A stretch of DNA of 33,652 bases from a candidate division FCPU426 bacterium (GCA_963771075.1 CAVYSE010000022.1:1-33652), one strand, 5' to 3'; shown: positions 2,861-30,785, counted from the stretch's first letter. Translations and numbers: made by a program. The notes: generated from the letters alone by a model not told the origin.

Positions 2861-3161
2861 AGACTATAACAAAACCTAATTTCACCACAGGCCGCCTTTG
2901 GCGGCCACATGCCGACCTTCCATAAACCCATTAAGGAGGTCGGTATAGTCCAGCTATCTTTGGCCCTAAGGGACAGAGGCACAGAGAAAAATCTTTCTAA
3001 ATTCAAGGAATCTTAAACCCATTGTCCGGGTTTACTATGTCCCCTTTCGCCAATAAGGAGAAAGAAATTGGGACAATACCGACCCCCTTTTATGTTTCTT
3101 GGATGGTCGGCATGTGTCTCCGTGTCTCTGTGGTAAATATTGGGTTTTGATAGATTCTAAG
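2861..3161. mobile_element. MITE-like palindromic repeat, copy 1 (carries an extra ~70-bp internal hairpin module)
   Basis: Near-identical to 19082-19317; imperfect terminal inverted repeats CTATAACAAAACCTAATTTCACCACAG / CTGTGGTAAATATTGGGTTTTGATAG; non-coding. Confidence 0.75.
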
Positions 3162-3223: not shown

Positions 3224-3502
3224 AAAAAAATTATTTTTATTTATCGATTCCTTTATTTGAAATTTGATCGTTTAAAGCTCAACCCTCAAGTCCCACGTCA
3301 AACCAGCTTGCGACAACCCGCAGAAAATTTCCTTGGATCATGGCCTGTGAAAATATTTCGATGTAAGCGGTCCAATCTTCGGAATCTAGATTCGGAACTG
3401 GATAGAATCTCAAAAAAGGAGAATTGAACTTCTTCTTTAAAATTGATTGGGCCGCGAAGCGTAGGCTAAAACGTTTTCAGCATGGGGCCCCGAAGTGGAA
3501 AG

Positions 3503-6500
3503 ATGCGTTTGATAAATCGCTTTCAACATCTTCGTTTGGCAATCTTTTCATCCCTTGTATTCTTGGCCTTGTTTGGTTTTTTCCCTCGTCTTTCTTTTTC
3601 CCAGACCTGCAGCAACATGGCCTTGCCCGTTTCCGTCTTATGCGTAACCGTTTCACCGGCCAACCCCAATCCGGGCTCGCCCCTGACCGTCGTGGTGAAC
3701 TACTGCAGTAACGTCAATGGGGGCGGGGGCACGGAGATGGTCGTGGCCCTCAATGGAAACTCGAATCAAATTCAGGCTTGCGGGCAGGGAAACCAGTATT
3801 TTCTTGTGGACCAGCACGGCATCAACGTGAATGACACGAACCCCAATCCGGTGCCCTGTTGCGACATGGGGTGGTATGACGGCATCCTCAATTCAGGGGG
3901 GGGCTGTTCCAACCACTCGGTTACCTTCAACCTGACGGTTCCATTGGGCGCCAATGTGGGCGGTATTTATAATGTAGTCGTGGCCGCCGGGGGATACGGC
4001 AGCTTGACCTGCGGGTTCACTGGCAATAACAACGTAACCTCCGCACCCATCACCATTCCTTTACCGCCGCCTGGTTTGACGGCCGTCAAGGCGGCGGATG
4101 ACAACCGCTTCCCGGTCAATTCCGGCGACCTCATTTTGTTCCATATTGACTATAATTTCGTGAACACCAACAACCTTCAAATCTCCGATACGGTGCCAAC
4201 CTATACCACTTTGGTGTCGGCCGGACCCCTGGGTTCGGTCAGTGGGGCGGTTTCGGGATCAGGACCGGGAACCCCGGTTACCTGGAGCTTGGGAAACGCG
4301 GTTACCCACGTGACGGGTTCGGCCTGGATGTTGGTGAGGGTCAATTCGGGTTCCGCCGGGCCTCCTCCCGGTTGGGTCATGAACAACACCGCCGAGGCCT
4401 CCACCAATGAATTACCGGGCCCGCTGACAACCAACACGGTTTATGTCACGGTAGGTACGGGTTTCCAGGTGCAAAAAAGCCAGATTCCGGCCTCCGGTTT
4501 ATTAAATCCCGGCCAAAACGTTTCCTACATTTTGCAGTACAGCTATTCGGGATCAAGCCTGCAGTTTTACGACTCCTACCAGAATGACGCGGTCAATACA
4601 TCGGGAGCGGCCATCGCCGGTTACGATGGCACGCTTTACAACGTATCCAACAATGCCGCCACTTTTGGGGTGGCCACCGACTCCCAAAACCACCATTACA
4701 TCGTGGCCGACGCCTGCCCCTCCAACCCCATCAGTGTCACCTGTTCCAATTTCACGACCCTGCTTCGCGACAGCCCTCCCGTCAACCTGTGCGGCGGGGT
4801 TACGGTCGAGGGTGATTTGATGATCCCCGCCATCAACCCGCCCCAGGGGGCGGATGCCCACATCGTCTTGGCCGACAATAACGCCGCGACCCTAACGGGT
4901 AGCTACGGGGACGCTTACATGATGTCGATCTCCCTCGATGACAACCCGGGCAATTTCTATCTCCAAAAAAATTCCTCCGCTCCCAACGCGCTCACCTACC
5001 CGGTCACCCTTTCGGACGCCCAGATCGGCGTTACCATCACGTCCGGGGCTTGGTACACCGTCAAGTCCTCCCTGGTTTACAGCGGAACAACCCTCACCAT
5101 TTGTTCCAAGGTCTGGCCGACGGGGACGGCGGAGCCGGCCGCCTGGGCTTTCTGTTACGCCGATACGAATCCCTTGCCCTGTACGCCGCGGAACGGGGGG
5201 AGCTACCAGGTGGGATGGCAGGCCGACGGCACCGCCAACACCGATTATTACTCCAATTTAAAGCTGATCAGCCAGGATCCGGTGGTGGGTACCCAGGTCT
5301 GGGATACCGTACCCATGGGCGTGGTTTACGCGGGCCAATCCACCGCGGGGGCCCTGCAGGGAGGTGGAACCGTTAATTTCAACTCGGGTCCGACATTGGG
5401 CTGGAGCTTTCCGGGCACCCTTTTCAACAATCCCACGGGCGCGATCACCTGGTGGGGTACGGCCGAGTGCTCCTCCTCCGGGGCCGTGACCAATAGTTTC
5501 GACCTCCAGCCGCTCTCCCCGCCGGTGAGCGTCCTTGTTTCGAACTCCGTTACCTTGGCCATCGCCACTTGTACTTTCACCCCCACGCTTACTCCCACCC
5601 GTACCCCGACGGCAACTCCCACCCAAACACCCACCATCACTCCCACTTTTACGCCGACTCCTTCCTCTACTTGGACGCAGACTTTTACGCCCACCTCGAC
5701 CTATACCTATACCCCCACGCCGAGCCCGACCTTTACCCCGACACCCACTTCGACCTGGACTTCAACCTTCACTCCGACCCCGACCGCCACTTTCACCGCA
5801 ACCTTTACCCCGACCTTGACCGATACTTTTAGCCCCACGCCGAGTCCCACTTTCACTTGGACGGAAACCTTTACCCCCACGGTGACCATGACCGAGACCT
5901 TCACGCCAAGTCCAACCCCCACCTTGACCTTTACCCTGACCCCGACCCCCACCTGGACCCCGGTTTTCAGTTATACCTGGACCTCCACGCCGACTTCCAC
6001 GAATACTCTCACCGTTACGCCCACCCCGACCCAAACCGATACATCCACCCCCACCCTCACCTCGACCTGGACTCCCACCGTAACCGCGACGCCAACGCAA
6101 ACCCTTACGTCAACGCCCACCCCGTCATCAACGCCAACCTTTACCCTAACCTTTTCGTTCACACCTACCGATACGGCCAGTTCCACCCCGACCTCGAGCC
6201 CTACCCAGACCCCGACCTTCAGTTCCACCCCCACGGCGACGCTCACCTTTACCCCAACGAACAGCATGACCGATACCCTGACCCCCACCCCCACCGCCAC
6301 CCCGACCCCGACCTCCACTCCTTCCTTCACCTTGACCGAAACCACCAGCTTTACACCGACGGTGACGGCCACTGCCACCTATTCTTCCACCTCGACGGGA
6401 ACCTTTACCGCGACAGCCACCTTGACTCCCACATCTACCCCGACCTGGTCTTCCACGATGACTTCCACCTTCACGCCCACCACGACCTTTACCGCGACCC

Positions 6501-7849
6501 TCTCCTTCACATCCACGGCGACCCCGACCGCCACCGCTACGCCTCCCGGCGTCATGACGCTGGGAAAGACCGCCTCCGAAGTGGTCGCCCAAGTCCTGGA
6601 TATGGTGACTTTTGACCTTTCCGTTACCTTAACGGGAAGCCCGGTCTCGGGGGCGGTGGTGAGCGACAGCCTTCCGGCGGGGGAGTCCTTCCATGCCTGG
6701 GGGACTTCACCTCCAGGAACGACCTACCAGTCGGCCGGCAGCCTCCTGACCTGGAACCTTCCCCCGCTTTCTCCCGGCGTTTACGACCTGACCTATACCG
6801 CATCCGTGAACAGCACCTTGATTTCGGGGCAATCGCTCCTGAACCGGGCCTGGCTGACCTATCCCGTGGGAGCGCCGGTGACGGCCCAGGCCGAGTTGAC
6901 GGTGGTTGGATCCTACACCCTTCGGGCGGGGGTCTATAACGAGGCGGGAGAGCTCATCCAAACCCTGACCTTTACCCAATCGGGCCAAAACACGCTGCAG
7001 ACCAACCTGGCCATCAACGATTTTTCAGTGGGGCCCTCAACGATCGTCTCCTACCCGGGGCAAACGGAGATCATCGCGGGGGGAGTCACCCTTGCTTCCT
7101 GGAATGGGAATGGACAAGACGGCAACCCGGTCCCCAACGGGAATTACTACATCTCACTGCAAAGCATCACCCCCACTGGGCAGGTAACCACGGTTACCCG
7201 GCAAGTCGCCGTCAACCGGGTGATAAACAAGGTCACCATTCAAATTTTCAACGAGGCGGGGGAGGTGGTCCGCAATTTATATACCTATACGAGCGGCCCC
7301 GTGGCCAATAACAATCTCCAGGTTTCCCTTTCCACCACCGCTTTTGAACCCACTAGCGGCGAGGGATCAGGCAACCTGCCGACCCAGGTTACGATCACCC
7401 TCAATAACGGCACGACCGAGATTTGGAATGGGCAGGCAGATGATGGGGCGATCGTGCCCACGGGCCGGTATTTCGTGGTGGTGCATTCCCAGGATGGGCT
7501 GGGAGGGGAATTGGTCGTCACCCGGCTTGTGACCGTGATGTCGGAAAACGCGGAGCAGGGACTGGGCAATTTAACCGCCCTGCCCAATATCGTGAACGCT
7601 TCATCGCCGGGGGGATACAACGTCACCTTTACAACCCATTCCTCCCAGACCATGACCCTTACTTATCGGATTTATGACATCGCGGGGGAATTGGTGAGTT
7701 CGCGAATAACGGGTCCGGCGGGAATGAATATTGCGGTCTGGGACGCCTCGCTTGTGGCGAGCGGTTGTTATTTAGCGGTGGTAGAGGCGTTGAATCTCCA
7801 GGGCGGATGGGTGGGTCGGAAAACCCTCAAGGTGGTGGTCGTTCACTAA
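3503..7849 (+). CDS. Large secreted multidomain protein: signal peptide, Cys-rich N-domain, DUF11-like repeats, Thr/Pro linker, three FlgD-Ig-like C-terminal modules
   Basis: ORF 3482..7849, start at ATG 3503 or 3482; hydrophobic leader ending ...SFSQ; DUF11-like motifs (K.A......GD.I.F.I, ISDTVP, VSDSLP); repeated YN.AGE.(I/V) and WNG...G.Y motifs; ends KVVVVH. Confidence 0.85.
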
Positions 7850-12647: not shown

Positions 12648-12800
12648 CACCAAAGACGCTATTGGATTTCGGCGGGGTCACTCATTTGTCGGTTGGGTTG
12701 TTTAACGCGGTACTTGAGATTGGATCTATGATTTTACCCATATCTTCCATCCGCTTGAGTTTTATAATACGCCCCGGTTCAAAGACATTTGGGAGGCCCC

Positions 12801-14465
12801 ATGAAAAGCAATGTTTCGATCCTTCAGGAAAACCGTCTCAACTTTAAGCCCACTTTGCCCAAGGTCTTGAACCAGAAACCTTCCAAGATCGGATACAAGT
12901 CGGGCAAGCCTTCTCAGTCCATCAGCGACCAGGAGGCCATTTGGAAACTTTTTCCCATGACCTACGGCCAGCCCGAGGTGTTTTTCGGGCCCGGCAAGGC
13001 CCCGGCATCTTTGTTGAAGCCCATCAAGGTGGCGGTGGTCCTTTCGGGCGGCCAGGCTCCTGGGGGCCACAATGTGGTGGCGGGTTTGTTCGACGGTTTG
13101 AAGAAACTGAACAAGAAAAACACCCTCAACGGTTACCTGGGCGGGCCCTCCGGCCTGATGGATAACGAGAAGATCGAGATCACGGAAGAATTGCTCAAGG
13201 GATACCGCAACACCGGCGGGTTCGACATCATCGGTTCGGGCCGCACTAAGTTGGAAACCCCCGAGCAATTCGGGAAGGTCGAGGCCAACCTGAAAAAGGC
13301 CGGCATAACCGCCCTGGTGGTGGTCGGTGGGGACGATTCGAACACCAACGCGGCGGTCTTGGCCGAGTATTTCAAGGCCCAAGAATCCAACATTCGGGTC
13401 ATCGGCTGCCCCAAGACCATCGACGGGGACTTGAAGAACGAACAAATCGAGGTCAGCTTCGGCTTCGACACCTCCACGAAAATCTATGCCGAATTGGCGG
13501 GTAACGTCGGCCGGGACACCCTCTCCGCCAAGAAATATTGGCATTTCATCAAGGTCATGGGCAGGTCGGCCAGCCATATCGCCCTGGAAGTCGCCCTGAA
13601 GATCCACCCGAATATCTGCCTGATCTCCGAGGAGGTCGCGGCTAACAAGTCGACCCTGGACGAGATCACGACCGAAGTGGCCAAGGTGGTCGCCGCCCGC
13701 GCGGAGAAGAAGCGCAATTACGGGGTGGCCATCGTTCCCGAGGGATTGCTGGAATTCATCCCGGAGATGAAGAAGCTTATCGGGGAATTGAATGACCTTT
13801 TGGCCCAAAACGCCGAATTTGAAAAGCTGGAACTGCCGGAAGACAAGGTTTCCTACGTCAAGCACAAGCTTTCGGCCGAATCCAAGGGCGCGTTTCATTC
13901 CCTGCCCCACTCCATCCAAGTCCAGCTCCTGGCCGACCGGGACCCCCATGGCAACGTCCAGGTCTCGAAGATCGACACCGAAAAACTTTTGTTGGAAACG
14001 GTGGCCTTGAGGCTGAAAGAATGGAAGAAAGAAGGGAAGTACAACGGCAAATTCTCGGGCCAGGGCCATTTCTTCGGATACGAGGGCCGTTGCGGCGCCC
14101 CCTCCAATTTCGACGCCAATTACTGCTACGCCCTGGGCTACACCGCCTCCCTATTGGTGGCGGGCGGGTTCACCGGCTATCTTTCCAGCGTGCGCGATCT
14201 CTTGAAGCCTGCTTCCCAGTGGAAAGCAGGTGGAGTGCCCTTGACCATGATGATGAATTTGGAGCGGCGCCATGGGAAGGAAAAGGCGGTCATCCAAAAG
14301 GCTTTGGTTGATCTCAAGGGAAAGCCCTATAAGGCTTTTGAGGCCCTGAGGAAGAAATGGGCGATGGAAGATGATTTCGCCAGCCCGGGCCCGATCCAAT
14401 ATTGGGGTCCCGCCGAAGTGGCGGACGTGGTACCCGAAACCCTGCGGTTGGAGCGGGGGAAGTAA
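12801..14465 (+). CDS. pfp: Pyrophosphate-dependent 6-phosphofructokinase (long clade)
   Basis: SGGQAPGGHNV, GGDDSNTNA (Asp typical of PPi-dependent enzymes), PKTIDGD, MGRSASH, GYEGR; GGGAGG RBS before ATG 12801. Confidence 0.95.
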   Translation: MKSNVSILQENRLNFKPTLPKVLNQKPSKIGYKSGKPSQSISDQEAIWKLFPMTYGQPEVFFGPGKAPASLLKPIKVAVVLSGGQAPGGHNVVAGLFDGLKKLNKKNTLNGYLGGPSGLMDNEKIEITEELLKGYRNTGGFDIIGSGRTKLETPEQFGKVEANLKKAGITALVVVGGDDSNTNAAVLAEYFKAQESNIRVIGCPKTIDGDLKNEQIEVSFGFDTSTKIYAELAGNVGRDTLSAKKYWHFIKVMGRSASHIALEVALKIHPNICLISEEVAANKSTLDEITTEVAKVVAARAEKKRNYGVAIVPEGLLEFIPEMKKLIGELNDLLAQNAEFEKLELPEDKVSYVKHKLSAESKGAFHSLPHSIQVQLLADRDPHGNVQVSKIDTEKLLLETVALRLKEWKKEGKYNGKFSGQGHFFGYEGRCGAPSNFDANYCYALGYTASLLVAGGFTGYLSSVRDLLKPASQWKAGGVPLTMMMNLERRHGKEKAVIQKALVDLKGKPYKAFEALRKKWAMEDDFASPGPIQYWGPAEVADVVPETLRLERGK

Positions 14466-14495
14466 ACCAAAGCATTTTTGGTCAAGATTTGCGAG

Positions 14496-14526
14496 AGGGC
14501 GGAAGAAATTCCGCCCTTTTTTATTT
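14496..14526 (+). terminator. Intrinsic terminator after pfp (identical to 20108-20137)
   Basis: GGGCGGAA-GAAA-TTCCGCCC-TTTTTT. Confidence 0.85.
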
Positions 14527-14571
14527 TGGGGTTAAAATCTTCGAGAAATTGAAGGTTGAATGTAAATGACC

Positions 14572-14594
14572 GGTTCGAGTCCAATCCTGGGAAT
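14572..14594 (+). repeat. Site A1: tRNA T-arm/acceptor-like putative attachment site
   Basis: GGTTCGAGTCCAATCCTGGGA, homologous to 20181-20201 and 14713-14727. Confidence 0.6.
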
Positions 14595-14712
14595 CTTTTA
14601 AGGACTCGAACTAATGGGAAAGGCTCATGGAAAACGGGATGTTTTCCATGAGCGGGTTTAAAAGGGGTACACAGGGGGTATTTCCCCTGTGGGAGCGAAG
14701 CGACGGGTTGAT

Positions 14713-14727
14713 GTCCAACCCGGGGAG
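14713..14727 (+). repeat. Site A2 (right half of site A); also supplies the RBS of the next ORF
   Basis: GTCCAACCCGGGGAG, matching 20188-20201. Confidence 0.55.
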
Positions 14728-14736
14728 GAATCAGAA

Positions 14737-15303
14737 TTGAATAAACAAGTCTTAATATTTATTTTATTTTTTCCGCTTTTTTGTTTTTGTTACGGAGGTG
14801 AAATTGAGCCACCCTCAAATTTTTATACGGATGAAATAACCCGAGTAATATTTCCTGGCGCGTTTAATTTACGTGACGATGGAGCTATAAAGGGCACCAC
14901 CAAAAAAAGGGACGACAAGCGTAGCTTTCTTGAATATCAAGTAAATGTTGATTTTCCAGCAGAACAACTTATTTCGTTTTATCAGAAAAAATATAAAGCT
15001 CTCGGATATGAATTTAAAGGCGGGTCAAAATGGAATCTTACGGACAATAATTCGATGACTAATGTTTCTCCAAGACCATGTGTATTTGAAATTCATGAAG
15101 TCTGGGGGAATAAAACCAAAAAAAGGGAAGCCGTTGTAATTATCAGATACTTATCTGCTTTTCCATCTTCCGGAAATCAAGTCGATTGTTCTGACAAACC
15201 CGATAATTCCATAGCCTGCGTTTGGATTGGATCTTTCATCCAAGGGGATTTAAAGAAGATGGCAGAAGCTCAGGAAAGAAATGTTGGTGGCCAATCCCGT
15301 TGA
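14737..15303 (+). CDS. AT-rich hypothetical exported protein (cassette 1)
   Basis: TTG start 8 nt after GGAGG; hydrophobic N-terminus LIFILFFPLFCFC; composition differs from the flanking core genes. Confidence 0.65.
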   Translation: MNKQVLIFILFFPLFCFCYGGEIEPPSNFYTDEITRVIFPGAFNLRDDGAIKGTTKKRDDKRSFLEYQVNVDFPAEQLISFYQKKYKALGYEFKGGSKWNLTDNNSMTNVSPRPCVFEIHEVWGNKTKKREAVVIIRYLSAFPSSGNQVDCSDKPDNSIACVWIGSFIQGDLKKMAEAQERNVGGQSR

Positions 15304-15335
15304 GAGTCATGTTGCCGTTTTACAAGGAATTTAAT

Positions 15336-15362
15336 GGTTCGCAAATCGTTTAATCTGGGGAG
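15336..15362 (+). repeat. Site B1: inter-cassette repeat
   Basis: GGTTCGCAAATCGTTTAATCTGGGGAG. Confidence 0.8.
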
Positions 15363-15378
15363 CTAAAAATAAAATTTT

Positions 15379-16050
15379 ATGACTTATAACCTAAGCAATT
15401 TTACATTTGAGGAATGGTTGAAATTTGTTTTTGACCATCCCGTTATTGATAAAACTGGGTTAACGCATAAACAACAGCATTGGTATCTCCAAGGTGAATG
15501 GTATTCAACACCTTGGGATGGTTCTCAACAGATCGAATTTTGTATCCAGCTATTTGAACGTCCTTCAGTCGTTAAAGCCGAATATTCATGGGAGCAAATT
15601 GAGGAAGGTTTGCGGTTTTTAAACAATGAAATTGTTCTTTACTTGCTTCATGACACGAACCTGCCATGGCCCAAGCGGAAAAAACTTATCGAATCAATGA
15701 AAGATCTATTTTCCCAATTATTGAAAGATAATCCGATTAGTACGTGTAGGTTTATGTGGTGGGATGGGCTCTGTTATGACTACTACCTAAAAAAAGGAGT
15801 CGCGGAAAACGAGGATGATTTAAATGTCCAAAACACTATTTTCGATACGTTGAAAGGTATTTTGAATATTGAATCATTAAGATGTCAGGTTGCCGCATTA
15901 CATGGGATTGGCCATCTCATGCACAAGGAAACAACGTCTGTAATTAATGGGTTTTTGGAAAAACATTCTGATTTACCAAAGCATATCCAAGAATACGCAA
16001 AGGCATGTATCAAAGGGAAGATGGACCCTTGGGAACCAATGACTGACTAA
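15379..16050 (+). CDS. AT-rich hypothetical protein (cassette 2), helical/HEAT-like C-terminus
   Basis: 223-aa ORF with W..FVFDHP, FMWWD and AALHGIGHL motifs. Confidence 0.75.
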   Translation: MTYNLSNFTFEEWLKFVFDHPVIDKTGLTHKQQHWYLQGEWYSTPWDGSQQIEFCIQLFERPSVVKAEYSWEQIEEGLRFLNNEIVLYLLHDTNLPWPKRKKLIESMKDLFSQLLKDNPISTCRFMWWDGLCYDYYLKKGVAENEDDLNVQNTIFDTLKGILNIESLRCQVAALHGIGHLMHKETTSVINGFLEKHSDLPKHIQEYAKACIKGKMDPWEPMTD

Positions 16051-16137
16051 AGTGGACCGAAAAACAGGGTTTAAATATGTTTTTTTAAAAAACTTCTCTT
16101 TTAGAATTACTTAAGAGCGAATTATCTCGAATCTCAG

Positions 16138-16164
16138 GGTTCGCGAATCGTTTAATCCGGGGAG
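16138..16164 (+). repeat. Site B2: inter-cassette repeat
   Basis: GGTTCGCGAATCGTTTAATCCGGGGAG. Confidence 0.8.
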
Positions 16165-16224
16165 ACGTTTGGAAGTTTTGACCCATAACCCCGGTTGGAT
16201 TCTAAAGCGCAGAGGTGTGGAAAT

Positions 16225-16271: not shown

Positions 16272-16730
16272 TCAATCCATGGCGCCAGCCATCATCCGTT
16301 TTTCCATTTCCTCGGGCGAAACATCCTCGATGTGGGTGGAAACCATCCACTTGTGTCCGAAGGGGTCTTCCAACGCGCCCGAACGGTCGCCGTAGAACTG
16401 GTCCTTCAGGGGGCGCAGTTCCTTAGCGCCCGCCTGGAGGGCCTGGCGGAAAATCTTATCCGCGTCCTCGACGTAAAGCATCAGGCTGGAGGGGGAACCG
16501 CCCAGGCTGTGGGGGCCCTTCATATCCCCGGTCTCGTCGGCCATCATGATGGTTGAGTCGCCGATCATGATTTCAGCGTGCATGATTTTTCCCCCGGGCC
16601 CGGGCATGCGGAATTTCTCACGCGCCCCGAAAGCCTTCTTGTAGAACTCAATGGCTTCGGCGGCGTCGTGAACCATTAGGTGCGGCGTGGCAGTATGGTA
16701 CCCATCCGGTATTGGTTTTGCGTTTGGCAT
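16272..16730 (-). CDS. VOC/glyoxalase family protein (PhnB-like)
   Basis: PIPDGYHTATPHL, AIEFYKKAFGA, DQFYGDRSG.LEDPFGH.W; GGAGG RBS. Confidence 0.9.
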   Translation of the reverse strand: MPNAKPIPDGYHTATPHLMVHDAAEAIEFYKKAFGAREKFRMPGPGGKIMHAEIMIGDSTIMMADETGDMKGPHSLGGSPSSLMLYVEDADKIFRQALQAGAKELRPLKDQFYGDRSGALEDPFGHKWMVSTHIEDVSPEEMEKRMMAGAMD

Positions 16731-17139
16731 GACAACCTCCCCTGTTTAATCCGACCCAAGCATCCTGAACCTTCCCGGGGTGGGAATACAAATAACGGAC
16801 CGTGAATTTCCAGGAAATTTACCTTGGCCTTTTCTGTGGAAATCCGCAAGGAGAATGATCCCCTATTCGAAAAGGGATAATGAGAATCTTGAATCCATTC
16901 AGGGAAAACGGTTTGATTCGCGTTTGGCTAACACTCCGAAGTTCCGTTACGGTTGGGTAGGGGCCACCCGATGCCAAGAAACATGACGAAACTCCCCTTT
17001 GCATGAAGTAAAGACCTAGACACAATTATGAAAACCCTTTCAGCCTAACGAATCCGGTTTGAAGGCCGAAGTGAATGGGTCATAATTGTTTCCGCATTAA
17101 GCGGTGTTGATTAAGCCAATCAATCAAAGGTGGTTATCT

Positions 17140-19041
17140 ATGGTTAGCCGTCTCAAGAACATTGCCTCGAAGCCTTTCTACATCCTCACTTGCCTGGCGC
17201 TGTTGATGTCATTCTCTTGGGTGAGCCGGTCGGTGGCAGGGGACGACATTCCCGCTCCGCCCGACTCGGTGGTCCTGGTGCACCCCACGCCCCTGGTCGC
17301 CCCGAGGACCCATGCTATTCCGGCGGGCGGCGAGTCCCTCTTTCCAAAGCCGGGCATCGACATGCTTCCGGTGGGCGACCTGGGTAAAGGATATGGAACT
17401 TCCGAGAAGGTTCAGGTGGAAGGCCAGCCATTTAAGGAAGCCCTCCTTTTAACCACCTTGAAAGAGACCTCCCAGAAATGGGACGTGAACGCGGATTGCC
17501 CGATCCCCCAAGCGACATTCCAGGGCGATGTGATCCTGGCCGAGTTCTGGCTGAAGGCCACCCAGAGCCGGGTGGAAAGTGGCGAGGCCAAGACCGAGTT
17601 CGTATTTGAGCGTCTCGGCGATCCCTGGACCAAGGCGGTGGAATACGCCATCCCGGTCGGACCGCAATGGAAGAAATACTCGATTCCCTTTGAGTGCGTG
17701 GAAGACCTGCCCGCCGGGAAGGCCCATATCTGCTTCCGGATGGGATACGGGCCGCAGGCTTACGAGCTGGCGGGCCTTAAATTGACCAATTATGGGACGA
17801 CGAAAAAAATTGACGACCTACCCAAGACCAAGTCCACTTATGAGGGAATGGAACCGACCGCCCCTTGGCGCAAAGAAGCCCAGGCGCGTATTGAAAAGTT
17901 CCGTAAGGGGGATTTGAGCGTGGTGGTCAAGGACGCCCAGGGGAACCCGGTTTCCGGCGCCCAGGTTTTGGTGGATATGAAACGCCAGGCCTTCGGCTTT
18001 GGTTCCTGCGTGGTCGCGGGCCGGCTGGCCGGCACGGGCCCCGACAACGATCGCTACCGCAAGGAAGTGGAGCGGCTGTTCAACAAGGTGGTTTTCGAGA
18101 ACGACTTGAAGTGGGGCTTCTGGGAACAGGGCGCCACCAACAGCGGTGGCTGGAGCCGCCAAAGCGTGCTGGATTCCCTCAAATGGCTCTCCGACCGGCA
18201 CATCGCCGTGAGGGGCCACAACATGGTCTGGGGCGGCTGGCAATACATTCCCGCCGACGTCCAACAGGTGAAGGGCGATCCCAAGGCGCTGGAGAAAGCC
18301 ATCGAGCACCGGATCCAAGACGTGGGCACCGCCATGAAGGGCAAGGTGGTGGAGTGGGACGTGGTGAACGAGCCTTACCCCGAGCACCAGTTGACGGACA
18401 TTTTCGGGAAACAACAACTGGTCACCTGGTACAAGAAAGCCCGGCAGGCCGATCCCACGGCCCTGCTTTTCGTGAACGATTACCCCACGCCGGATAACGA
18501 GGGCCACTTGGCCGGGGATGAGGCGGTGATCAAGCTTTTGCAGGATAACAAGGCGCCCCTGGGCGGATATGGGTTGCAGGGGCATATCGGCGGTTCGCCC
18601 TGGTCCATGCCGGACCTTTTGAAGACCCTGGACCGGTTCGGGGCCTATGGCATTCCCGTGGAGATCACCGAGTTCGATACCCAGATCATGGATGACGAAT
18701 TGGACGCCCAGTTCATGAAGGATTTCCTGACGGCGGTCTACAGCCACCCATCCACGAACGGTTTTATCATGTGGGGCTTCTGGGACGGCGCCCAGTGGAA
18801 CCACAAGGCACCCATCTTTAATGAGGATTGGACCGAGAAGCCGTCGGGCAAGGCCCTGGAACAGCTGATGTTCCACGACTGGTGGACTAACGCGAGCGGC
18901 AAGACCGACGCGGAGGGTTCCTACCAAACGAGGGGTTTCACCGGGGATTATGAGGTAACGGTCAAGTCCGGCGGCAAGACGGTAACGGTGCCCGCCCAAC
19001 TGACCAAGGAGGGGCTGACCCTTCCCGTGGTCTTGAAATAA
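17140..19041 (+). CDS. Secreted GH10 endo-1,4-beta-xylanase with N-terminal carbohydrate-binding (CBM4/9-like) domain
   Basis: ENDLKW, RGHNMVW, WDVVNEP (acid/base Glu), GLQGH, ITEFD (nucleophile Glu), WGFWD; signal peptide. Confidence 0.9.
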   Translation: MVSRLKNIASKPFYILTCLALLMSFSWVSRSVAGDDIPAPPDSVVLVHPTPLVAPRTHAIPAGGESLFPKPGIDMLPVGDLGKGYGTSEKVQVEGQPFKEALLLTTLKETSQKWDVNADCPIPQATFQGDVILAEFWLKATQSRVESGEAKTEFVFERLGDPWTKAVEYAIPVGPQWKKYSIPFECVEDLPAGKAHICFRMGYGPQAYELAGLKLTNYGTTKKIDDLPKTKSTYEGMEPTAPWRKEAQARIEKFRKGDLSVVVKDAQGNPVSGAQVLVDMKRQAFGFGSCVVAGRLAGTGPDNDRYRKEVERLFNKVVFENDLKWGFWEQGATNSGGWSRQSVLDSLKWLSDRHIAVRGHNMVWGGWQYIPADVQQVKGDPKALEKAIEHRIQDVGTAMKGKVVEWDVVNEPYPEHQLTDIFGKQQLVTWYKKARQADPTALLFVNDYPTPDNEGHLAGDEAVIKLLQDNKAPLGGYGLQGHIGGSPWSMPDLLKTLDRFGAYGIPVEITEFDTQIMDDELDAQFMKDFLTAVYSHPSTNGFIMWGFWDGAQWNHKAPIFNEDWTEKPSGKALEQLMFHDWWTNASGKTDAEGSYQTRGFTGDYEVTVKSGGKTVTVPAQLTKEGLTLPVVLK

Positions 19042-19081
19042 CTTTTTAGGCCGGTGAAATAGGACGAGTGGTGAGGTTAAG

Positions 19082-19317
19082 AGACTATAACAATAACTAA
19101 TTTCACCACAGGCCGCCTTTGGCGGCCACATGCCGACCTTCCATAAACCCATTAAGGAGGTCGGTATAGTCTAGCTATCTTTGGCCCTGAGGGCCAAAGA
19201 GACAGAGGCACAGAGAAAAACCTTTCTAAATTTAAGGAATCTTAAACCAATTGTCCGGGGTTACTCTGTGTCTCCGTGTCTCTGTGGTAAAAATTGGGTT
19301 TTGTTAGAGATTCTAAG
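19082..19317. mobile_element. MITE-like palindromic repeat, copy 2
   Basis: Near-identical to 2861-3161 without its second internal module; imperfect terminal inverted repeats. Confidence 0.75.
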
Positions 19318-19337
19318 TCTTTACTAAAGGACGGATT

Positions 19338-20081
19338 ATGAGCATTGAATCAACCAAAGGTAAATGGGCCCTCGTCACCGGCGCGAGCCGGGGGGTGGGC
19401 AAACAGGTCGCGATGGCTTTGGCGAAGCTGGGCTGCCATGTGGCGCTTCACAGCCGGGAAGCCAGCCATACCGACGCGATTGCCAAGGAAGCCAAGGCGC
19501 TGGGGGTCCAGGTCATCCAGGTTTCGGGCGAATTGTCCGACCAGGCCCAAGTGGACGCCCTGCTGGAGTCGGCCCTGAAAGGGGCGGGCCGGATCGACAT
19601 GGTGTTCAATAACGCGGCGGTCATGACGCCCTGGCGGCAGAACCCCTGGGAGACCACGGCGGATGATTTCCGAAAGAGTTTCGAGGTCAACGTCATCAGC
19701 CTCGCGAGGATCTGCGGCAAATTGGCGCCGCCCATGCTGGAACGCAAATGGGGAAGGATCGTCAATGTCACTTCCGGCATCATGCATACGCCTGAGCTGA
19801 CCGCTTACGCCGTATCCAAGGCGGCGGTGGACAAGTTCGTGCGTGACTTCGTCCCCACCTTGAAGGGAACGGGGGTCATGATGAACCTGTTGGATCCGGG
19901 CTGGCTTCGCACGGACCTCGGCGGGCCCAACGCCCCCAATACGGTGGAAAGCTGTATCCCGGGGGCCATTGTCCCGGCCCTGTTGGACGACGGGATCAGC
20001 GGCCGTTTTTTCCGCGCCCAGGACTACGCAGGGTTAAGCCTGGCGGATGCGCTTAAAAAGGCGGCCGAAGTAAAGAACTAA
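19338..20081 (+). CDS. Short-chain dehydrogenase/reductase
   Basis: TGASRGVG, NNAA, YAVSK, PGW.RTD. Confidence 0.92.
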   Translation: MSIESTKGKWALVTGASRGVGKQVAMALAKLGCHVALHSREASHTDAIAKEAKALGVQVIQVSGELSDQAQVDALLESALKGAGRIDMVFNNAAVMTPWRQNPWETTADDFRKSFEVNVISLARICGKLAPPMLERKWGRIVNVTSGIMHTPELTAYAVSKAAVDKFVRDFVPTLKGTGVMMNLLDPGWLRTDLGGPNAPNTVESCIPGAIVPALLDDGISGRFFRAQDYAGLSLADALKKAAEVKN

Positions 20082-20107
20082 CAAGGGATTATTAAAAGAA
20101 TTTTGAG

Positions 20108-20137
20108 GGGCGGAAGAAATTCCGCCCTTTTTTATTT
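20108..20137 (+). terminator. Intrinsic terminator after SDR (identical to 14497-14526)
   Basis: GGGCGGAA-GAAA-TTCCGCCC-TTTTTT. Confidence 0.85.
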
Positions 20138-20180
20138 GGGGGAACCAGTTTTAAAGGGTTTAAAATAAACGCAATCATTC

Positions 20181-20202
20181 GGTTCGAGTCCAACCCGGGG
20201 AT
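20181..20202 (+). repeat. Site A3: tRNA T-arm/acceptor-like putative attachment site
   Basis: GGTTCGAGTCCAACCCGGGGA. Confidence 0.65.
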
Positions 20203-20222
20203 GCATTCAAATAGGAGTTACT

Positions 20223-20630
20223 GTGAAGAAAAAGACACTAAAAACATTTCTTGTCTCGCTAACAATTAAACATTCAAGGAAAAGCCTAAGCGAACTTTCT
20301 GCCGCAATAAAACTACCGTATTCAAAAGGTTCTTGTAATAAGGGTGACTTAATCCATGGGAATAAAAAAGCTAAGAATACCGTTTGGATTTATTACGTCA
20401 ACACAAAGAAAATTAAGACATTGGATAAGTGTATCGAAAAACTAATTTTTTCGTTTAATCATTCATCTCTTAAGGCGTCTAGGTCGGTCCCAAGAGATTG
20501 GGATGCCCATTTAGACGTTGCCGTGTTATATAAAACTTATACTTGTTCTTTAGTAATTCAGGCAAAACAATTGAAGTGGTTCTCGATTAGGAACATTGGC
20601 CTGTCAATAAGCTGTTATCCGACATCTTAA
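20223..20630 (+). CDS. AT-rich hypothetical protein, DUF4279-like (cassette 3)
   Basis: AGGAG RBS and GTG start; VSLTI...KGD...W...LSISCY pattern resembles DUF4279. Confidence 0.65.
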   Translation: MKKKTLKTFLVSLTIKHSRKSLSELSAAIKLPYSKGSCNKGDLIHGNKKAKNTVWIYYVNTKKIKTLDKCIEKLIFSFNHSSLKASRSVPRDWDAHLDVAVLYKTYTCSLVIQAKQLKWFSIRNIGLSISCYPTS

Positions 20631-20653
20631 GCTCGAATTACCTGAAATTTGAT

Positions 20654-20680
20654 GGTTCGAAAATCGTTTAATCCGGGGAG
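20654..20680 (+). repeat. Site B3: inter-cassette repeat; GGGGAG serves as RBS for the ORF at 20689
   Basis: GGTTCGAAAATCGTTTAATCCGGGGAG. Confidence 0.8.
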
Positions 20681-20688
20681 TCTTAAAA

Positions 20689-21069
20689 ATGGAAGAAATT
20701 GTGGCAATTAAAGTAACCCACGGAAAAGGAAAAAAGGATTTTTTCCTAACTTGGGGAAGAACTTTTGATCCGGTTGAACACGCACAACTTTTACATGCAG
20801 TTGGTAAAAATCTAAAAAAATATGGAATTAAAAATATCAAAAAGTTACTTCTTCTAGATAGTTTGAAGGAAGTGTTTAGGGAGAGATATTTTTTTGAGCA
20901 CTATTTCTTAATGGCGCAAAAGAAAATTCCCTTTGGCAAGGGCTATAACCGTTGGCGAAAAGCGATGAATAAAAAGATAACGCAAGGTTATGAAATTTAT
21001 AAGATCAGTGATTACCGTCCAATAAATAAAACCTTATCCAGGGAAATAACCTTAAAACAACGAAATTGA
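20689..21069 (+). CDS. AT-rich basic hypothetical protein (cassette 4)
   Basis: 126-aa ORF with ATG 8 nt after GGGGAG; FLTWGR.FDPV motif. Confidence 0.7.
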   Translation: MEEIVAIKVTHGKGKKDFFLTWGRTFDPVEHAQLLHAVGKNLKKYGIKNIKKLLLLDSLKEVFRERYFFEHYFLMAQKKIPFGKGYNRWRKAMNKKITQGYEIYKISDYRPINKTLSREITLKQRN

Positions 21070-21070
21070 T

Positions 21071-21085
21071 GGTTCGAAAAACGTT
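21071..21085 (+). repeat. Site B4: left half of site B closing the array
   Basis: (AAATTGAT)GGTTCGAAAAACGTT; the right half has diverged. Confidence 0.6.
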
Positions 21086-21141
21086 CGGAATGGTGAACCA
21101 CTCTTCTTCGTAAACCGGCCCTTTTTCAGCCCTTTTTCGTA

Positions 21142-24163: not shown

Positions 24164-24660
24164 AATTTTATAACGCCGTTATAAAATTGGAAGAATAGGC
24201 GGGGTGAATTAGTAGTAATACTACTAATTCAAATAAGGGAATTTGGCAGGTAGGGTGGCATGGGGGGTGAATTAGAGGAATTTCCTCTAATTCAATCAAG
24301 GGAATTCGGTTTAAAACCCGGGTTAAGGTTTTAATTGGCCGCAGTGCGGCCAATTGGCGGGTTTGTTGGATGGTTAGCTGGGTGAATTGATCGCAGTGCG
24401 ATCAATTCAAATAAGGGAATTTGGCATAAACCCCAGGAAGGGGGGTGAATTAGCGGCCTGGCCGCTAATTCAAATATGGGAAATTGGCAGCAAGGCGGGT
24501 ATCGGGGGTTGAATTGATACGATTCGTATCAATTCAGGTAACGAAAAATAAGGGAAATCTTAATGTTTTGCAGATTCTGCAAAATTTCAATATTCCCCTT
24601 ATATTTTGTCCCCCCATTCCGGGCCTTTGGAAATGGGTTTTATAACGCCGTTATAAAATT
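24164..24660. repeat. Array of nine variable-arm perfect palindromes with semi-conserved flanks
   Basis: Palindromes at 24164-88, 24206-30, 24269-93, 24333-55, 24384-408, 24447-71, 24511-35, 24566-84 and 24638-58. Confidence 0.9.
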
Positions 24661-25847: not shown

Positions 25848-25988
25848 GAGGAATGTGGACAACTGTGAATAGTGTGCATAACTTTTCTTTCTAAATAAAA
25901 ATAAAAAATAATTTTTAAAAAATTCTATCGTGACTTTGGAAATGACGGATAGAATGCGCACCTAACGAATTTTTTGCCTGGAGTTTAC

Positions 25989-27384
25989 ATGGAAGTTGCC
26001 CGTAAAAGTTTTCCCCTCTCTCCCTTCGCCAACAGCCAATCCGAGTTCCGCGTTCCGCCCCAAGACCTGGAAGCCGAGCAGTCGGTCCTGGGCGCCATGA
26101 TGCTTTCCTCCGACGCCATCCGGGCGGTGATCCCCGTCTGCCACGAGGAGGACTTTTACCGGGAGGCGCACCGGAAACTTTACCACGCCATCGTGGTGCT
26201 GGACGACCGCAAGGAACCGGTGGACATCATCACCCTCACCAACGAACTCAAACGCATGGGGGATTTCGACACCGTCGGGGGAGTCACGGCCCTGACCACA
26301 TTGGTCGACCGGGTGCCCACCGCCGCCAACGCCGAATATTACGCCCAGATCGTCAAGGAAAAGTCCTCCGCCCGCAAGCTAATCACCGCCGCCACCCAGG
26401 TGGTCGCCGACGCCTATTCGGACGCCATGCCCATCAAGGAACTGTTGGACGACGCGGAACACCGGATCTTCGAGGCCACCGAGCTTCGTGAAAGCAAGGA
26501 CTTCGACAGCATCAAGGACCTGATCGGCAATTCCTTCGAGTACGTCAACACCCTCACCGACCAGCAGCAGCACATCACGGGCGTGCCGACCGGTTTTTAC
26601 GACCTGGACGACCTGACGGCGGGTTTCCAGCCCGCCGAAATGATCGTCATCGGGGCCCGGCCCTCGGTCGGCAAGACCTCCCTGGCCCTGAACATCGCCC
26701 AGCACGCCTGCATGGGCACGAACCAGTTGAAGAAGAAGATTCCCGGTGGGGTTTTTCTCCATCGAAATGACGGCCAAGCAATTGGCCCTCCGCCTGCTTT
26801 GTTCGGTGGCCCGAATCGACCTGAAAAAGGCCCGGTCGGGTTACCTGAGCGACCAGGAACGGGCTCGGTTGGTCGGGGTCACGGGCCAGTTTTATGAGGC
26901 CAAGCTCTTCATCGACGATACTTCCTCCATGTCGGTGCTGGACCTCAAGGCCAAGGCCCGCCGTTTGAAGCGGGAACAAGGCATCGGCATCCTGATCATC
27001 GACTACCTCCAGCTCATCCAGGCGGGCATCCGCGACGGCAACCGCGAGCAGGAAATCGCCTACATCTCCCGCAATTTGAAGGCGCTGGCCAAGGACCTGG
27101 ATATCCCGGTGGTGGTCCTGTCCCAGCTTTCCCGGCCGGTGAAGGGCGCGGAGGAAAAAAGACCGGTCTTGTCGGATCTTCGCGAGTCGGGCGCCATCGA
27201 GCAGGACGCCGACGTGGTCATGTTCATCCACCGGGAATCGGCCGGGCAGGACGGCGAAAAACCCATGTTCAAGTACGAATTGGTCCTCGCCAAACAGCGT
27301 AACGGCCCCACCGACAATATCGACGTGGTCTTCCGCAACCAATACACCACCTTCGAATCGGCATCGAAAGTTTCCGAACGATGA
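25989..27384 (+). CDS. dnaB: Replicative DNA helicase (one +1 frameshift near 26743, probably a read error)
   Basis: PPQDLEAEQSVLG, Walker A GARPSVGKT, FFSIEM, IDYLQL, LSQLSR, DLRESGAIEQDAD, KQRNGP. Confidence 0.95.
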
Positions 27385-28502
27385 GGTCCAAAACCCCGGC
27401 CTGGGCCGAAATATCCCTCACCGCCCTCAAGAACAATTTCAAGGCCCTCTCCAAGATCGCCCGGGGTTCCCATGTCCTGCCGGTGGTGAAGGCCAACGCC
27501 TACGGCCATGGGGCGGTGCCGGTTTCCCAGGCGCTCCTCCAAGCCGGGGCCAAAAGGCTGGCCGTGGCCACGGTGCAGGAAGGGGCGGAACTGCGGGCTT
27601 TCGGGATCGATTGCCCTGTCCTGGTCTTGACCCCCACCCTGAAAGAGGAAATCCCCGACCTCCTGGAAAACGGGCTTATCCCCCAGGTCAGTTCCTACGG
27701 AGGAGCCTTGGAACTGGCCCGGATCGCCAAGAAAATGAAAACCGGCCCGGTTCCCATTCACGTCAAGCTCGATACCGGCATGGGCCGGGTGGGGGTGAAG
27801 ATTCACCGGATTTTGGATGAAATAAAAGCCATCCGAAACATCCCCGAATTGAGGGTCGAAGCCCTCTATACCCACTTGGCCACCGCCGATTGGACCGACC
27901 CCAAATACGCCTGGAAACAGATTACCCAGTTCAACCAGGCGTTGGAACACCTCCGCCAAAAAGAGGGTTTTTTCCCCATGACCCACGTGGCCAACAGCGC
28001 CGCGCTCTTGACCTATTTTCCCCAGTCCGCGGGCACCTGGGTGCGGCCCGGCATCGCCCTTTACGGCATCTATCCCAATCCGGCCTTTAAGAACAAGGTC
28101 GACTTAGCCCCGGTCATGCAGGTCAAGGCCAAGATCATCCATTTAAAGAAGATCGAAAGGGGCCAATCGGTCAGTTACGGCCGTACCTATACCGCCCGAA
28201 AGAGCGTGGTGGTGGCGACCGTGCCTTTGGGCTATGCTGATGGGGTGCACCGGAACCTTTCCAACAAGGCCCCATTCCTGATGGGCGGCCGGAAGGTGCC
28301 CCAAATCGGCACCGTTTGCATGGACATGCTCATGCTGGACGCCACGAAAGCGCGGGGGGCCAAGGTGGGGGATGAGGTTGTCTTTTTCGGCCGGCAGGGC
28401 CAGGCCGTAATCGGGGTGGAAGAACAGGCGGCCCTGGCTGGGACCATTTCCTATGAGCTGCTTTGCGCGGTAGGTGAAAGGGTGTCACGCCTTTACGTTT
28501 AG
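27381..28502 (+). CDS. alr: Alanine racemase
   Basis: VVKANAYGHG PLP lysine, KLDTGMGRVG, HVANSA, GYADG, CMDM, TISYE. Confidence 0.96.
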   Translation: MRSKTPAWAEISLTALKNNFKALSKIARGSHVLPVVKANAYGHGAVPVSQALLQAGAKRLAVATVQEGAELRAFGIDCPVLVLTPTLKEEIPDLLENGLIPQVSSYGGALELARIAKKMKTGPVPIHVKLDTGMGRVGVKIHRILDEIKAIRNIPELRVEALYTHLATADWTDPKYAWKQITQFNQALEHLRQKEGFFPMTHVANSAALLTYFPQSAGTWVRPGIALYGIYPNPAFKNKVDLAPVMQVKAKIIHLKKIERGQSVSYGRTYTARKSVVVATVPLGYADGVHRNLSNKAPFLMGGRKVPQIGTVCMDMLMLDATKARGAKVGDEVVFFGRQGQAVIGVEEQAALAGTISYELLCAVGERVSRLYV

Positions 28503-28541
28503 TTCCACTGGTTATTGGACCCTAGTCAGGGGAAATATCGA

Positions 28542-29237
28542 TTGAAAAAAATCATAACCAACCTATATCGATGTTGTTCCGTCCCGATCCTGGCTTTTTA
28601 TGTCGTGAGCGGCCATTCACTCGCGGAGCCGGTCCTTCGCGCCGCCGAAATGGATCTGCCCCCGATCTCGAATCCGAAAGTGGCCCAGGGAATCCGAACC
28701 TGGCTGAAAAAAGAATACAAGCGCCAGCGCAAAAGCTGGTCGGGGAAGACTTTCCCCTATGAGCCCCAGGTGGAGGTGGTGGGCCATTCGGGGAGGACCG
28801 AGAGCGTCGTGATCCGCCTGGAGTGTTTTGGGAAGGCCCAGTCCCGTTGGATCTTCAGCACCTATACCTACGACGTCAAAAACAACGTAAGGATCAAGTT
28901 GCCGGACCTTTTTATCGCCGATTCGGATTGGAAGAACGTCCTTTGGCCCTGCGTGGTCAAAAAGGCCTCCCGGACCTTTGATGGAAACCAATTCGGCGGG
29001 AAGCATCCCCGCACGGACCGATATTATGATTCCTTCTCCTTGGACGACCAGACTTTAAAGCTTTATTTCGACCAAGGCGTTATTGCTTCCCCGGCCCAGG
29101 GCCCGTTGGAAGTGGATGTACCCCTGTACCAGATCGGCCCCATCTTGAACCCCGAATTCCAGCCCTTGACTCCCGGCCCCCGGCATTTTGGGATGGCGGC
29201 TACCCGGGAGAAGCCGACAGGTTCTTTGAACAAGTAA
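28542..29237 (+). CDS. DUF3298/RsiV-like exported protein
   Basis: TYTYD......L.DLF and F.LDDQTLKLYFDQG.IA..AQG..EV.VP; start codon uncertain. Confidence 0.6.
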   Translation: MKKIITNLYRCCSVPILAFYVVSGHSLAEPVLRAAEMDLPPISNPKVAQGIRTWLKKEYKRQRKSWSGKTFPYEPQVEVVGHSGRTESVVIRLECFGKAQSRWIFSTYTYDVKNNVRIKLPDLFIADSDWKNVLWPCVVKKASRTFDGNQFGGKHPRTDRYYDSFSLDDQTLKLYFDQGVIASPAQGPLEVDVPLYQIGPILNPEFQPLTPGPRHFGMAATREKPTGSLNK

Positions 29238-29346
29238 GGGATCCGCGTTGGCCGTCGATAGTCCCAAGTGTTTATGTTAATCTTTCCCTGCCTCAGGCCT
29301 TTTTTAGACGACAACCCCTGAAAGACAATGATTAAAGGTGCCTTTC

Positions 29347-30138: not shown

Positions 30139-30145
30139 GAATTCC

Positions 30146-30785
30146 ATGGTTCCCGTCATCCAACTTAAAAAAGTCTCCAAGCGATTCGGCAAGTTCGTGG
30201 TCTTGAACGAAATGGACCTGGAGGTTTTCCCCGGGGAGACCCTGGTCATCATCGGGCGCTCCGGGGTGGGGAAGAGCACCATCCTGAAGCACATCTCGGG
30301 GCTGATGACCCCGATTCGGGGGAAGTGTGGGTGGAAGGCCAGAAAATTGAACGCATGGCCGAAAACGAGCTCAACGAAATGCGGAAGAAAATGGGAGTGG
30401 TGTTCCAGGGAGCGGCCCTGTTCGATTCATTGACCGTGTTCGAGAACGTGGCTTTCCGCCTATTGCGGAATTAGAGATGCCCCGCGAAAAGGCCATGGAA
30501 GTTTGCCGCCAAAAACTGGAACTGGTGGGCCTCCAGGACGAGGTGGCCTTCCGCAAACCTTCCCAACTCTCGGGCGGCATGCGCAAGCGGGTGGGGCTGG
30601 CCCGCGCGATCGCCGTCGACCCGGAGATCATCCTTTACGATGAACCCACTTCCGGGTTGGACCCGGTAGACTTCCGAAGCCATCAACGAGTTGATCTTGG
30701 ACATGCAACGGAAGCTCTCCGTAACCTCCATCGTGGTTACCCACGATATGCAAAGCGCCTACAAGGTGGCGAACCGGATAGCCAT
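30146..30785 (+). CDS. mlaF: MlaF-family ABC ATPase (frameshifted by read errors, cut off by the fold-back)
   Basis: [37 protein letters not shown]. Confidence 0.85.

Follow-up and report, generated by a model that had tools for sequence, protein, structure and literature searches.

One-gene cassette arrays at tRNA-Asn-derived sites in a candidate division FCPU426 bacterium: probable integron-like use of large serine recombinase sites

What can set single AT-rich genes in a row, all in one orientation, each closed by the same kind of short site, with neither an attC site nor an integrase gene at hand? The question is raised by two short arrays between pfk and rpsF in an uncultured soil bacterium of candidate division FCPU426 (genome G000; 4.39 Mb, 96.7% complete). 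The DNA analysed, called here the window, is one entire contig of this genome (G000:C22, 33,652 nt). A sequence-only reading of the window had taken array 1 for a gene-capture system built on two versions, A and B, of a tRNA-mimic site. On re-reading of the window sequence, its layout and all coordinates of the array 1 features were confirmed (Table 1). The AT-rich, single and co-oriented ORFs that it described between the sites are two forward ORFs with a GC content of 0.37, compared to 0.57-0.62 in pfk and in the VOC, GH10 and SDR genes.

The answer that we consider likely is that one-gene cassettes without an enzyme of their own are stacked at attB arms derived from tRNA-Asn by a visiting large serine recombinase (LSR). 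Gene capture at tRNA-mimic sites, as proposed earlier, was supported in that sense; A and B, on the other hand, would be attB- and attP-type arms, not two versions of a tRNA mimic.

The two arrays of the window

Table 1. Coordinates of the features of the window and of further loci named in the text; arm types are predictions from site geometry
Feature	Position	Strand	Remarks
pfk (phosphofructokinase), host gene	12789..14465	+	PF00365; left anchor of the insertion hotspot running to rpsF
pfk terminator, host	14493-14520 (duplicated stretch to 14531)	+	second copy before array 2, about 20105-20137 (duplicated stretch 20096-20142)
A1, ectopic tRNA-Asn 3' arm	14572-14592	+	attB-type left arm; core G|A at 14591|14592
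134-bp hairpin repeat	14592..14725	+	folds; homologs in 25/31 family genomes
A2, degenerate outer motif	14706-14725; core 14713-14726	+	crossover point 14725|14726; duplicate from the hairpin repeat
Cassette 1, 635 bp	14726..15360	+	single ORF 14737-15303, 188 aa, hydrophobic N-terminus, without Pfam family
B1	15336-15362	+	attP-type left arm; core at 15360|15361, with the outer motif 19 nt away
Cassette 2, 802 bp	15361..16162	+	single ORF 15379-16050, 223 aa, family of unknown function, without Pfam family
B2	16138-16164	+	attP-type left arm, closes array 1; core at 16162|16163
Inverted half-site	16189..16202	-	inner part of an A arm, degenerate; 26 nt to the right of the B2 core
GC-rich block between the arrays	16272..20081		VOC/glyoxalase (-), GH10 (+), SDR (+); relatives have it elsewhere
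Array 2, same build	20181..21095	+	A 20181, cassette 3 (135 aa), B 20654, cassette 4 (126 aa), B-type arm 21071
Hairpin repeat, further loci	G000 C11:241600-241800; loci L307-L335		folds, homology
B arms split by a palindrome	L110, L116, L131, L137, L148, L149, L156, L042, L068, L212, L222, L298, L341		
Related tyrosine integrases	G000 C7:97500-98650, C7:108100-109230, C3:383200-384320, C27:55300-56420		

In A1, 14 nt separate the outer motif from the G|A core, and a mirrored motif lies 15 nt to the right of the core. The conserved flank of B1 extends about 27 nt farther upstream, and its opposite strand reads as the C-terminal tail of an LSR. The claim that A2 is another A-type site was right as to the position, while the site itself is a degenerate duplicate that comes from a separate hairpin repeat. 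The ORF of cassette 1 most likely starts at the TTG at 14737, 11 nt past the A2 core, rather than at the GTG at 14689. For the inverted half-site to the right of B2, the chance expectation, computed post hoc, was about 0.0002 per 60-bp strand.

A terminator comparable to that of the window is found 3' of pfk in G002 and G003. In the window the pfk terminator is duplicated ahead of array 2, and, given this copy, the block of VOC, GH10 and SDR genes may have entered along with array 1. The last B-type arm of array 2 is joined to the upstream region of rpsF.

Array 1 was covered in part by contigs from four public runs on soil and bog samples, at a depth of about 1-6. B1 was crossed by a single contig of run X2 and B2 by one of run X4, with zero letter differences; since these contigs cross the two sites unchanged, array 1 is not an assembly artefact. 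One public-run contig had one altered letter in the outer motif of B1 at a depth of 4.3, possibly an error. No joints at the sites, either circles or skips, were seen in the contigs of the four shallow runs. Mismatches are present in each of A1, A2 and B1, and array 1 may therefore be a relic.

ARAGORN found no tRNA in the window, Rfam gave no match near the gathering score between positions 12000 and 27000, and no plus-strand promoter was found ahead of array 1. None of the four cassette ORFs of the two arrays was assigned a family by Pfam; in the ESM Atlas the cassette ORFs fell into unnamed clusters only, cassette 2 at 0.96-0.98. Cassette 2 has two non-self homologs (67-69%), and its sole homolog in the family (G012, 31%) lies at a locus without a detectable B site. 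A homolog of cassette 1 was absent from all five relatives searched, and neither cassette of array 1 was found elsewhere together with sites.

The right end of the window (27821-33652) forms a single long inverted repeat around a centre near 30740; its halves are 85-100% complementary and broken up into many pieces, and it is probably a long-read fold-back artefact. Near it, dnaB (25974-27384) is split across two frames. Five 40-nt palindromic repeats with fixed arms and a variable centre (24199-24546) are placed between rplI and a gene pair, HTH and IrrE/ImmA-like. An intergenic repeat is present in two copies, 2861-3040 and 19082-19269 (126 nt at 94% and 79 nt at 90%); it is multi-copy, since the second copy had a depth about ten times the background in public runs. 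Two long Thr/Pro-repeat proteins are encoded at 2-2860 and 3482-7849, the latter with FlgD-like and secretion-tail matches below the curated cut-offs.

Sites A and B and their common core

A tRNA ending in site A had been predicted, and it is tRNA-Asn: the site A 21-mer is the 3' end of the only tRNA-Asn gene in G000. At up to two mismatches this 21-mer has six non-tRNA copies in the genome; the other tRNA 3' ends tested (42, from 46 genes) have zero or one such copy each. The 21-mer was also found in 28 of the 30 other family genomes, with at most seven copies per genome. Flanks, retrieved for most places, defined 104 unique sites, namely 66 ectopic sites, 31 true tRNAs and 7 tRNA halves or tRNAs cut by a contig end.

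The columns of ectopic A were analysed in 64 sites, with the two extra-family sites excluded. Identity to the tRNA begins sharply at GGTTCG, in the T arm, and fades past GGGG|A, in an alignment whose 21 matched columns were partly fixed by the search itself. By upstream homology the ectopic sites form 47 groups, i.e., they occupy at least 47 flanking contexts. A TAAAAT-like hexamer stands upstream in 23 of the 64, compared to 3 on the opposite strand, without a clear -35 box. We rejected the idea that the HTH gene preceding some A sites is a bounded cassette, as no left boundary was found. Also rejected was an origin of ectopic A arms as chimeras of a B flank and a tRNA, as the upstream columns are without the B consensus.

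The hairpin repeat that separates A1 from A2 occurs family-wide, mostly directly behind tRNA genes (Asn, Val, Glu, Tyr, Leu, Ser). It ends in a degenerate copy of the 3' end of its tRNA, from the T arm onward, and is at times in tandem. The repeat is one lead to the origin of the ectopic 20-nt A arms. A loose pattern for the repeat ends produced matches that were largely noise.

For site B, a matrix search gave 7 sites in G000 compared to 0 in the reversed genome; in the genome and the loci together (5.4 Mb) there were 77 unique sites compared to 0 in the control. In the left arm, the outer motif GGTTCG and the G|A core are separated by 14 nt in A and by 19 nt in B. The earlier description of B as A with a 5-nt insert and C>T changes did not hold beyond the offset. 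The inner letters of B differ across the family (the commonest form ends GGAATGGGGAG), and the 5-nt offset is constant; GGTTCG and the offset are conserved at 0.88-1.00. In large serine recombinases the zinc-ribbon motif is 5 bp nearer to the centre in attB than in attP (PMC3783163, sections available to us). The 5-nt offset between A and B is, on sequence grounds, this attB/attP signature, with GGTTCG as the zinc-ribbon contact predicted from the arm geometry. The symmetry of the sites would place the crossover dinucleotide at G|A. The two ends of the element in G014 have just 9 nt in common, around G|A.

The right arms are less regular. A mirrored motif to the right of the core is present in 11 of the 64 ectopic A sites, at 14-17 nt in 7 of them and at 20-21 nt in 4; these four are LSR-side arms. 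An empty site in G001 (L062) is symmetric, 14+14. At B junctions a mirrored outer motif was found on the right arm in only 2 of 77; otherwise it occurs beside LSR genes and in some empty sites. A cassette circle would therefore be a one-armed attP. Excision between two B-type junctions would be a non-canonical reaction for an LSR, by the account in the part of PMC3783163 that we used.

The 77 B arms share one conserved LSR tail of 17 codons, L-P-x-x-N/Y-D-L-R-T-I/V-K-F-E-V/I-I-R, mostly followed by a stop (at codon 18-19 in 48 of 77). In 15 distinct sites from several genera a palindrome of about 25-45 bp is inserted in the B arm at the same point; the palindrome may abolish the function of the site, or it may be the sign of a REP-like parasite of the site.

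Genes begin close to the core. A true gene start was found 4-22 nt to the right of it in 35 of 78 B sites and 25 of 77 ectopic A sites, compared to 2 and 0 in the respective controls and 0 of 27 tRNAs. The core GGGG|AG is predicted to serve also as the ribosome-binding site (RBS) of the right-hand gene. Among 46 tRNAs, just Asn and one Arg have a word similar to the Shine-Dalgarno sequence in the last 14 nt. If a B core recombined with the RBS of the gene upstream of it, an exact forward one-gene unit would be excised, and the unit would be without a mirrored right arm, as is observed.

In the proposed mechanism, A would be the chromosome-side (attB) arm and B the element-side (attP) arm of an LSR family that targets the 3' end of tRNA-Asn, with strand exchange at G|A of GGGG|AG. 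A cassette would span the interval from one core to the next B core, and its circle would have the B arm joined to the cassette's own start. A passing integrative element would provide the LSR in trans, and the enzyme would insert the circle at A. Since A would be rebuilt on the left, insertions would stack with the newest first, as at an integron attI.

Arrays in the family and the enzyme that could build them

Many arrays with strain-variable content had been predicted, and such arrays were found across the family. The B motif is present in 23 of 31 family genomes and in 2 of 68 other genomes of the phylum; one of these two, G039, has its array directly behind tRNA-Asn. The sites are not local to the window, and the cassette content is not fixed. 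Where at least 1 kb could be read from an ectopic A, a B site followed downstream on the same strand in 24 of 63 cases (4 training sites, 20 outside the training set), compared to 0 on the opposite strand, 0 upstream and 0 in reversed sequence. At true tRNA-Asn loci, B was found within the 1-5 kb read in 0 of 26. Arrays have one to five B sites, with five consecutive ones on a single contig of G005. An exact scan across GTDB gave five stretches, including L077 (Krumholzibacteriia; an ectopic A and two B) and L080 (Latescibacterota; three B), and a metagenome scan gave matches in three short contigs.

The units that end in B (63 unique) are small and uniform: 60 are at most 1.3 kb, the median is 561 bp and the GC content is 0.37. 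The longest ORF is forward in 59 of the 63, and 62 unit proteins fall into 60 families. By eye, some loci have cassettes similar to toxin-antitoxin genes.

The junction between a sugar-transferase and an epimerase gene (30 loci retrieved, 25 readable) is an empty site in two genomes and a filled one in five, where the inserted genes are unrelated. In G008 and G024, A stands by itself, 31 nt ahead of the ATG. G000, G004 and G030 have A farther upstream, then an unrelated gene, then B 36 nt ahead of the ATG, so that the two sites, at -31 and -36 of the same ATG, differ by the same 5-nt offset. G001 and G027 are filled as well, with B split by the palindrome. Four genomes (G009, G012, G019, G028) have gaps of 8-24 nt without a site, and the sites are decayed in G003 and G023. 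The proposed model gives no account of G013, G017 and G021, where a gene is inserted without a detectable site. The remaining loci were uninformative. At five of these loci (L231, L232, L240, L252, L253) the first codons are duplicated ahead of the real start.

The pfk-rpsF distance also varies, from less than 350 bp in G014 and G024 to within about 2 kb in G004, G026 and G027. In G001 a single AT-rich gene lies there, with no sites around it; in G002 the gene encodes 594 aa and is flanked by decayed site look-alikes (by eye); and G003 has an A site, an unrelated ORF and a B site before rpsF.

One cassette, with a gene for 136-153 aa, was found in three genera, at a different locus in each: in G000 (C23) it directly follows A, in G005 it is the second unit of an array, and in G016 it lies within an array. 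Its homology runs from a few bases past the left core up to the B core. A unit with Sel1 repeats has different neighbours in G001 and G002. Separately, at two loci of G000 (C5:104630-106020 and C24:88610-90020) the same element, with a 389-aa transposase, interrupts the gene that comes first after an ectopic A.

A recombinase whose 3' end abuts B, another expectation of the sequence-only reading, was found in relatives and is a serine recombinase. A B pattern matched in 7 of 61 related genomes (control 0), and in G023 and G024 site B coincides in part with the 3' end of a gene in convergent orientation, whose product has resolvase, recombinase and zinc-ribbon domains (PF00239, PF07508 and PF13408). 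The LSR gene ends on the core; in G014 and G024 this is the core of an ectopic A, and in G023 that of the true tRNA-Asn. Whole elements in these three genomes consist of an A arm with the LSR 3' end, cargo and then a B arm. This B arm adjoins the start of a host gene in G014, and the LSR of the next element in G023 and G024. In the best 120 of 488 LSR homologs, 88 end in W..xxDSN, the reverse reading of the tRNA arm; 1 fits the B-reading pattern, with a few more by eye.

Such elements could also have produced the arrays by decay. Successive whole elements would have lost the recombinase and most of the cargo by deletion, each ending as a cis-mobilizable remnant of one gene and its B arm, and single-gene units would never move alone. 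The whole elements and their tandems, the LSR coding tail kept in the B arms with its early stop, and the junction right arms without a mirrored motif are all in line with scars of this kind, and accretion followed by decay to CIMEs is known (PMC5704250, in the part seen). We regard this as unlikely, since random decay would neither place gene starts within the 4-22 nt to the right of the core nor leave nearly all unit genes forward. Also, the same unit, with the same two ends, would not be expected at three loci in three genera.

Movement of single cassettes by an LSR needs an enzyme, and few genomes have one. The tRNA-Asn type of LSR was found in 4 of 31 family genomes: intact in G014 at about 258995-260820 of C4, with one stop in G024, cut by contig ends in G023 and decayed in G001. 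The G000 assembly has no full-length LSR. Because no intact LSR of this type is present in the assembly, the action in trans is what we infer. A PF07508 gene of any kind is present in 13 of 31 family genomes and absent from the array-rich G005, G006, G025 and G016, one of which is 99% complete in 5 contigs. Neither B pattern matched in viral contigs, which also had no close relative of the LSR; integrases of annotated phages are only about 30% identical to it. Both LSRs scanned were without DUF4368.

G000 does have a short serine recombinase, a 289-aa frame without a zinc ribbon at about 80000-80870 of C8, and three pieces of the same gene. Relatives of equal length are found in G004, G020, G024 and G027. 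A second cassette system of G000, with a palindrome of 28-30 bp, is headed by the short serine recombinase (e.g., C8:80000-83700, C4:72300-76700, C28:107700-108800).

It is improbable, even slightly more so than decay, that sites of LSR origin are now worked by this G000-encoded short enzyme (281-329 aa frame). The gene and its three pieces each end at a palindromic site, which has 86 matches compared to 5 in the control and the same G|A core. A few junctions (L112, L154, L182, L220) are hybrids, with an A or B arm and a palindrome arm meeting at G|A, and the enzyme would have no need of the right-arm motif that the junctions lack. Still, it has no domain that could read the outer motif, although B has kept both GGTTCG and the 5-nt offset. 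Besides, hybrid junctions are rare, and the short enzyme too is missing from G005, G006, G025 and G016.

It is very improbable, and largely refuted, that a tyrosine recombinase system (integron, dif module or tRNA-island integrase) or an insertion sequence builds the arrays: the unit boundaries are at G|A, 20 nt off the T arm, the IntI cut-off was reached in none of the family genomes, neither array has an attC-like pair, and the eight tyrosine recombinase matches in G000, four of them beside tRNA sequences, are all off the contig of the window, which has no PF00589 gene. The ectopic A arms do start sharply at the T arm, a known crossover region of tyrosine integrases (PMC4383910, in the part consulted), and for this reason a tyrosine integrase may have seeded the A copies. 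Four related tyrosine integrases of G000 (366-371 aa; Table 1) each face a tRNA gene or a tRNA fragment.

Relation to known systems and meaning

An integron consists of the tyrosine recombinase IntI, attC sites (R''...R', recombined as a folded bottom strand) and a platform site with an upstream cassette promoter. TIGR02249 scored above the cut-off in 0 of 31 family genomes, and a crude scan of both strands for RYYYAAC...GTTRRRY pairs at 33-135 nt found none in either array, which agrees with the earlier statement that attC is absent. Like integrons and CALINs, the arrays are rows of co-oriented, AT-rich, mostly unknown one-gene cassettes of 0.2-1.3 kb behind a platform site, with variable content and without a local enzyme. 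Unlike integrons, they have no IntI and no attC; the sites are of a double-stranded serine type, each genome has many short arrays, and the site itself provides the predicted RBS. By the IntI and attC tests the arrays are not integrons, as far as sequence comparison can tell, though they are integron-like in working.

The att systems of large serine integrases, as modelled on Listeria LI/A118, have the three-domain enzyme, the 5-bp attB/attP offset, a short common core and hybrid left and right junctions in common with the sites described here (PMC3783163, in part). Here, however, the target is a tRNA 3' end with dozens of ectopic copies, and the cargo is tandem single genes without the enzyme, with mostly one full arm per junction.

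In the tandem accretion of ICEs and IMEs with CIMEs, enzyme-less units also keep att sites, stand in tandem with intact elements and form chimeric junctions; the units described here differ in that they are uniform single genes starting from the core and recur at unrelated loci (PMC5704250, in part). Another difference from CIMEs is that the present sites occur in at least 47 flanking contexts and not at one locus. The composite islands of SCC show a likeness of the same kind as ICE and IME accretion does.

A tRNA 3' fragment marks the island end in tDNA islands as well (Islander, PMC4383910, in part), while in our arrays the fragment is the left, upstream anchor and no tRNA is found upstream. 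The traits of tyrosine-integrase tDNA islands (intact tRNA, displaced fragment, internal integrase) were not found in the window. According to the Islander paper (PMC4383910), no serine integrase was known in 2014 to have a tRNA gene as its target. In the available parts of two papers of 2026 (PMC12884075 and PMC13626063), neither tRNA targeting by serine integrases nor arrays of this kind are addressed. Multi-targeting LSRs, where one LSR cluster uses many chromosomal sites, are the closest in that respect (Durrant et al., PMC10083194, in part), whereas the targets described here copy 20 nt of a tRNA almost exactly and are no loose pseudo-sites. The main text of that paper nowhere contains the word tRNA (PMC10083194). 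In a search of mostly open-access main texts, we found no published description of LSR cassette arrays. What is most likely new here is the turning of LSR att sites and accretion into dispersed, integron-like arrays.

A further-reaching version is possible, and we put it forward tentatively. As the targeted end of tRNA-Asn resembles a Shine-Dalgarno sequence, we propose that the LSR may take RBSs for crossover cores. It would excise single genes at their start, plant tRNA-derived pads in operons and drop genes there ready for translation, with hosts keeping several pads and relying on visiting elements for the enzyme. The arrays would then be a chromosome-dispersed counterpart of the integron that works with a serine recombinase.

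With an attP that appears to have one full arm and a left junction that is reused, the system may offer a direct test of the directionality rules of LSRs. The serial stacking of genes would profit from such an LSR, whose 20-nt target is known, regenerates and also gives an RBS. If the account is true, arrays of this kind would be missed by finders based on attC sites and tyrosine integrases. Cassette-wise gene capture would also have arisen twice in evolution, here through serine chemistry on double strands where integrons use folded single-strand sites. For the family itself, the 60 unrelated families of cassette genes make up a new pool of accessory genes.
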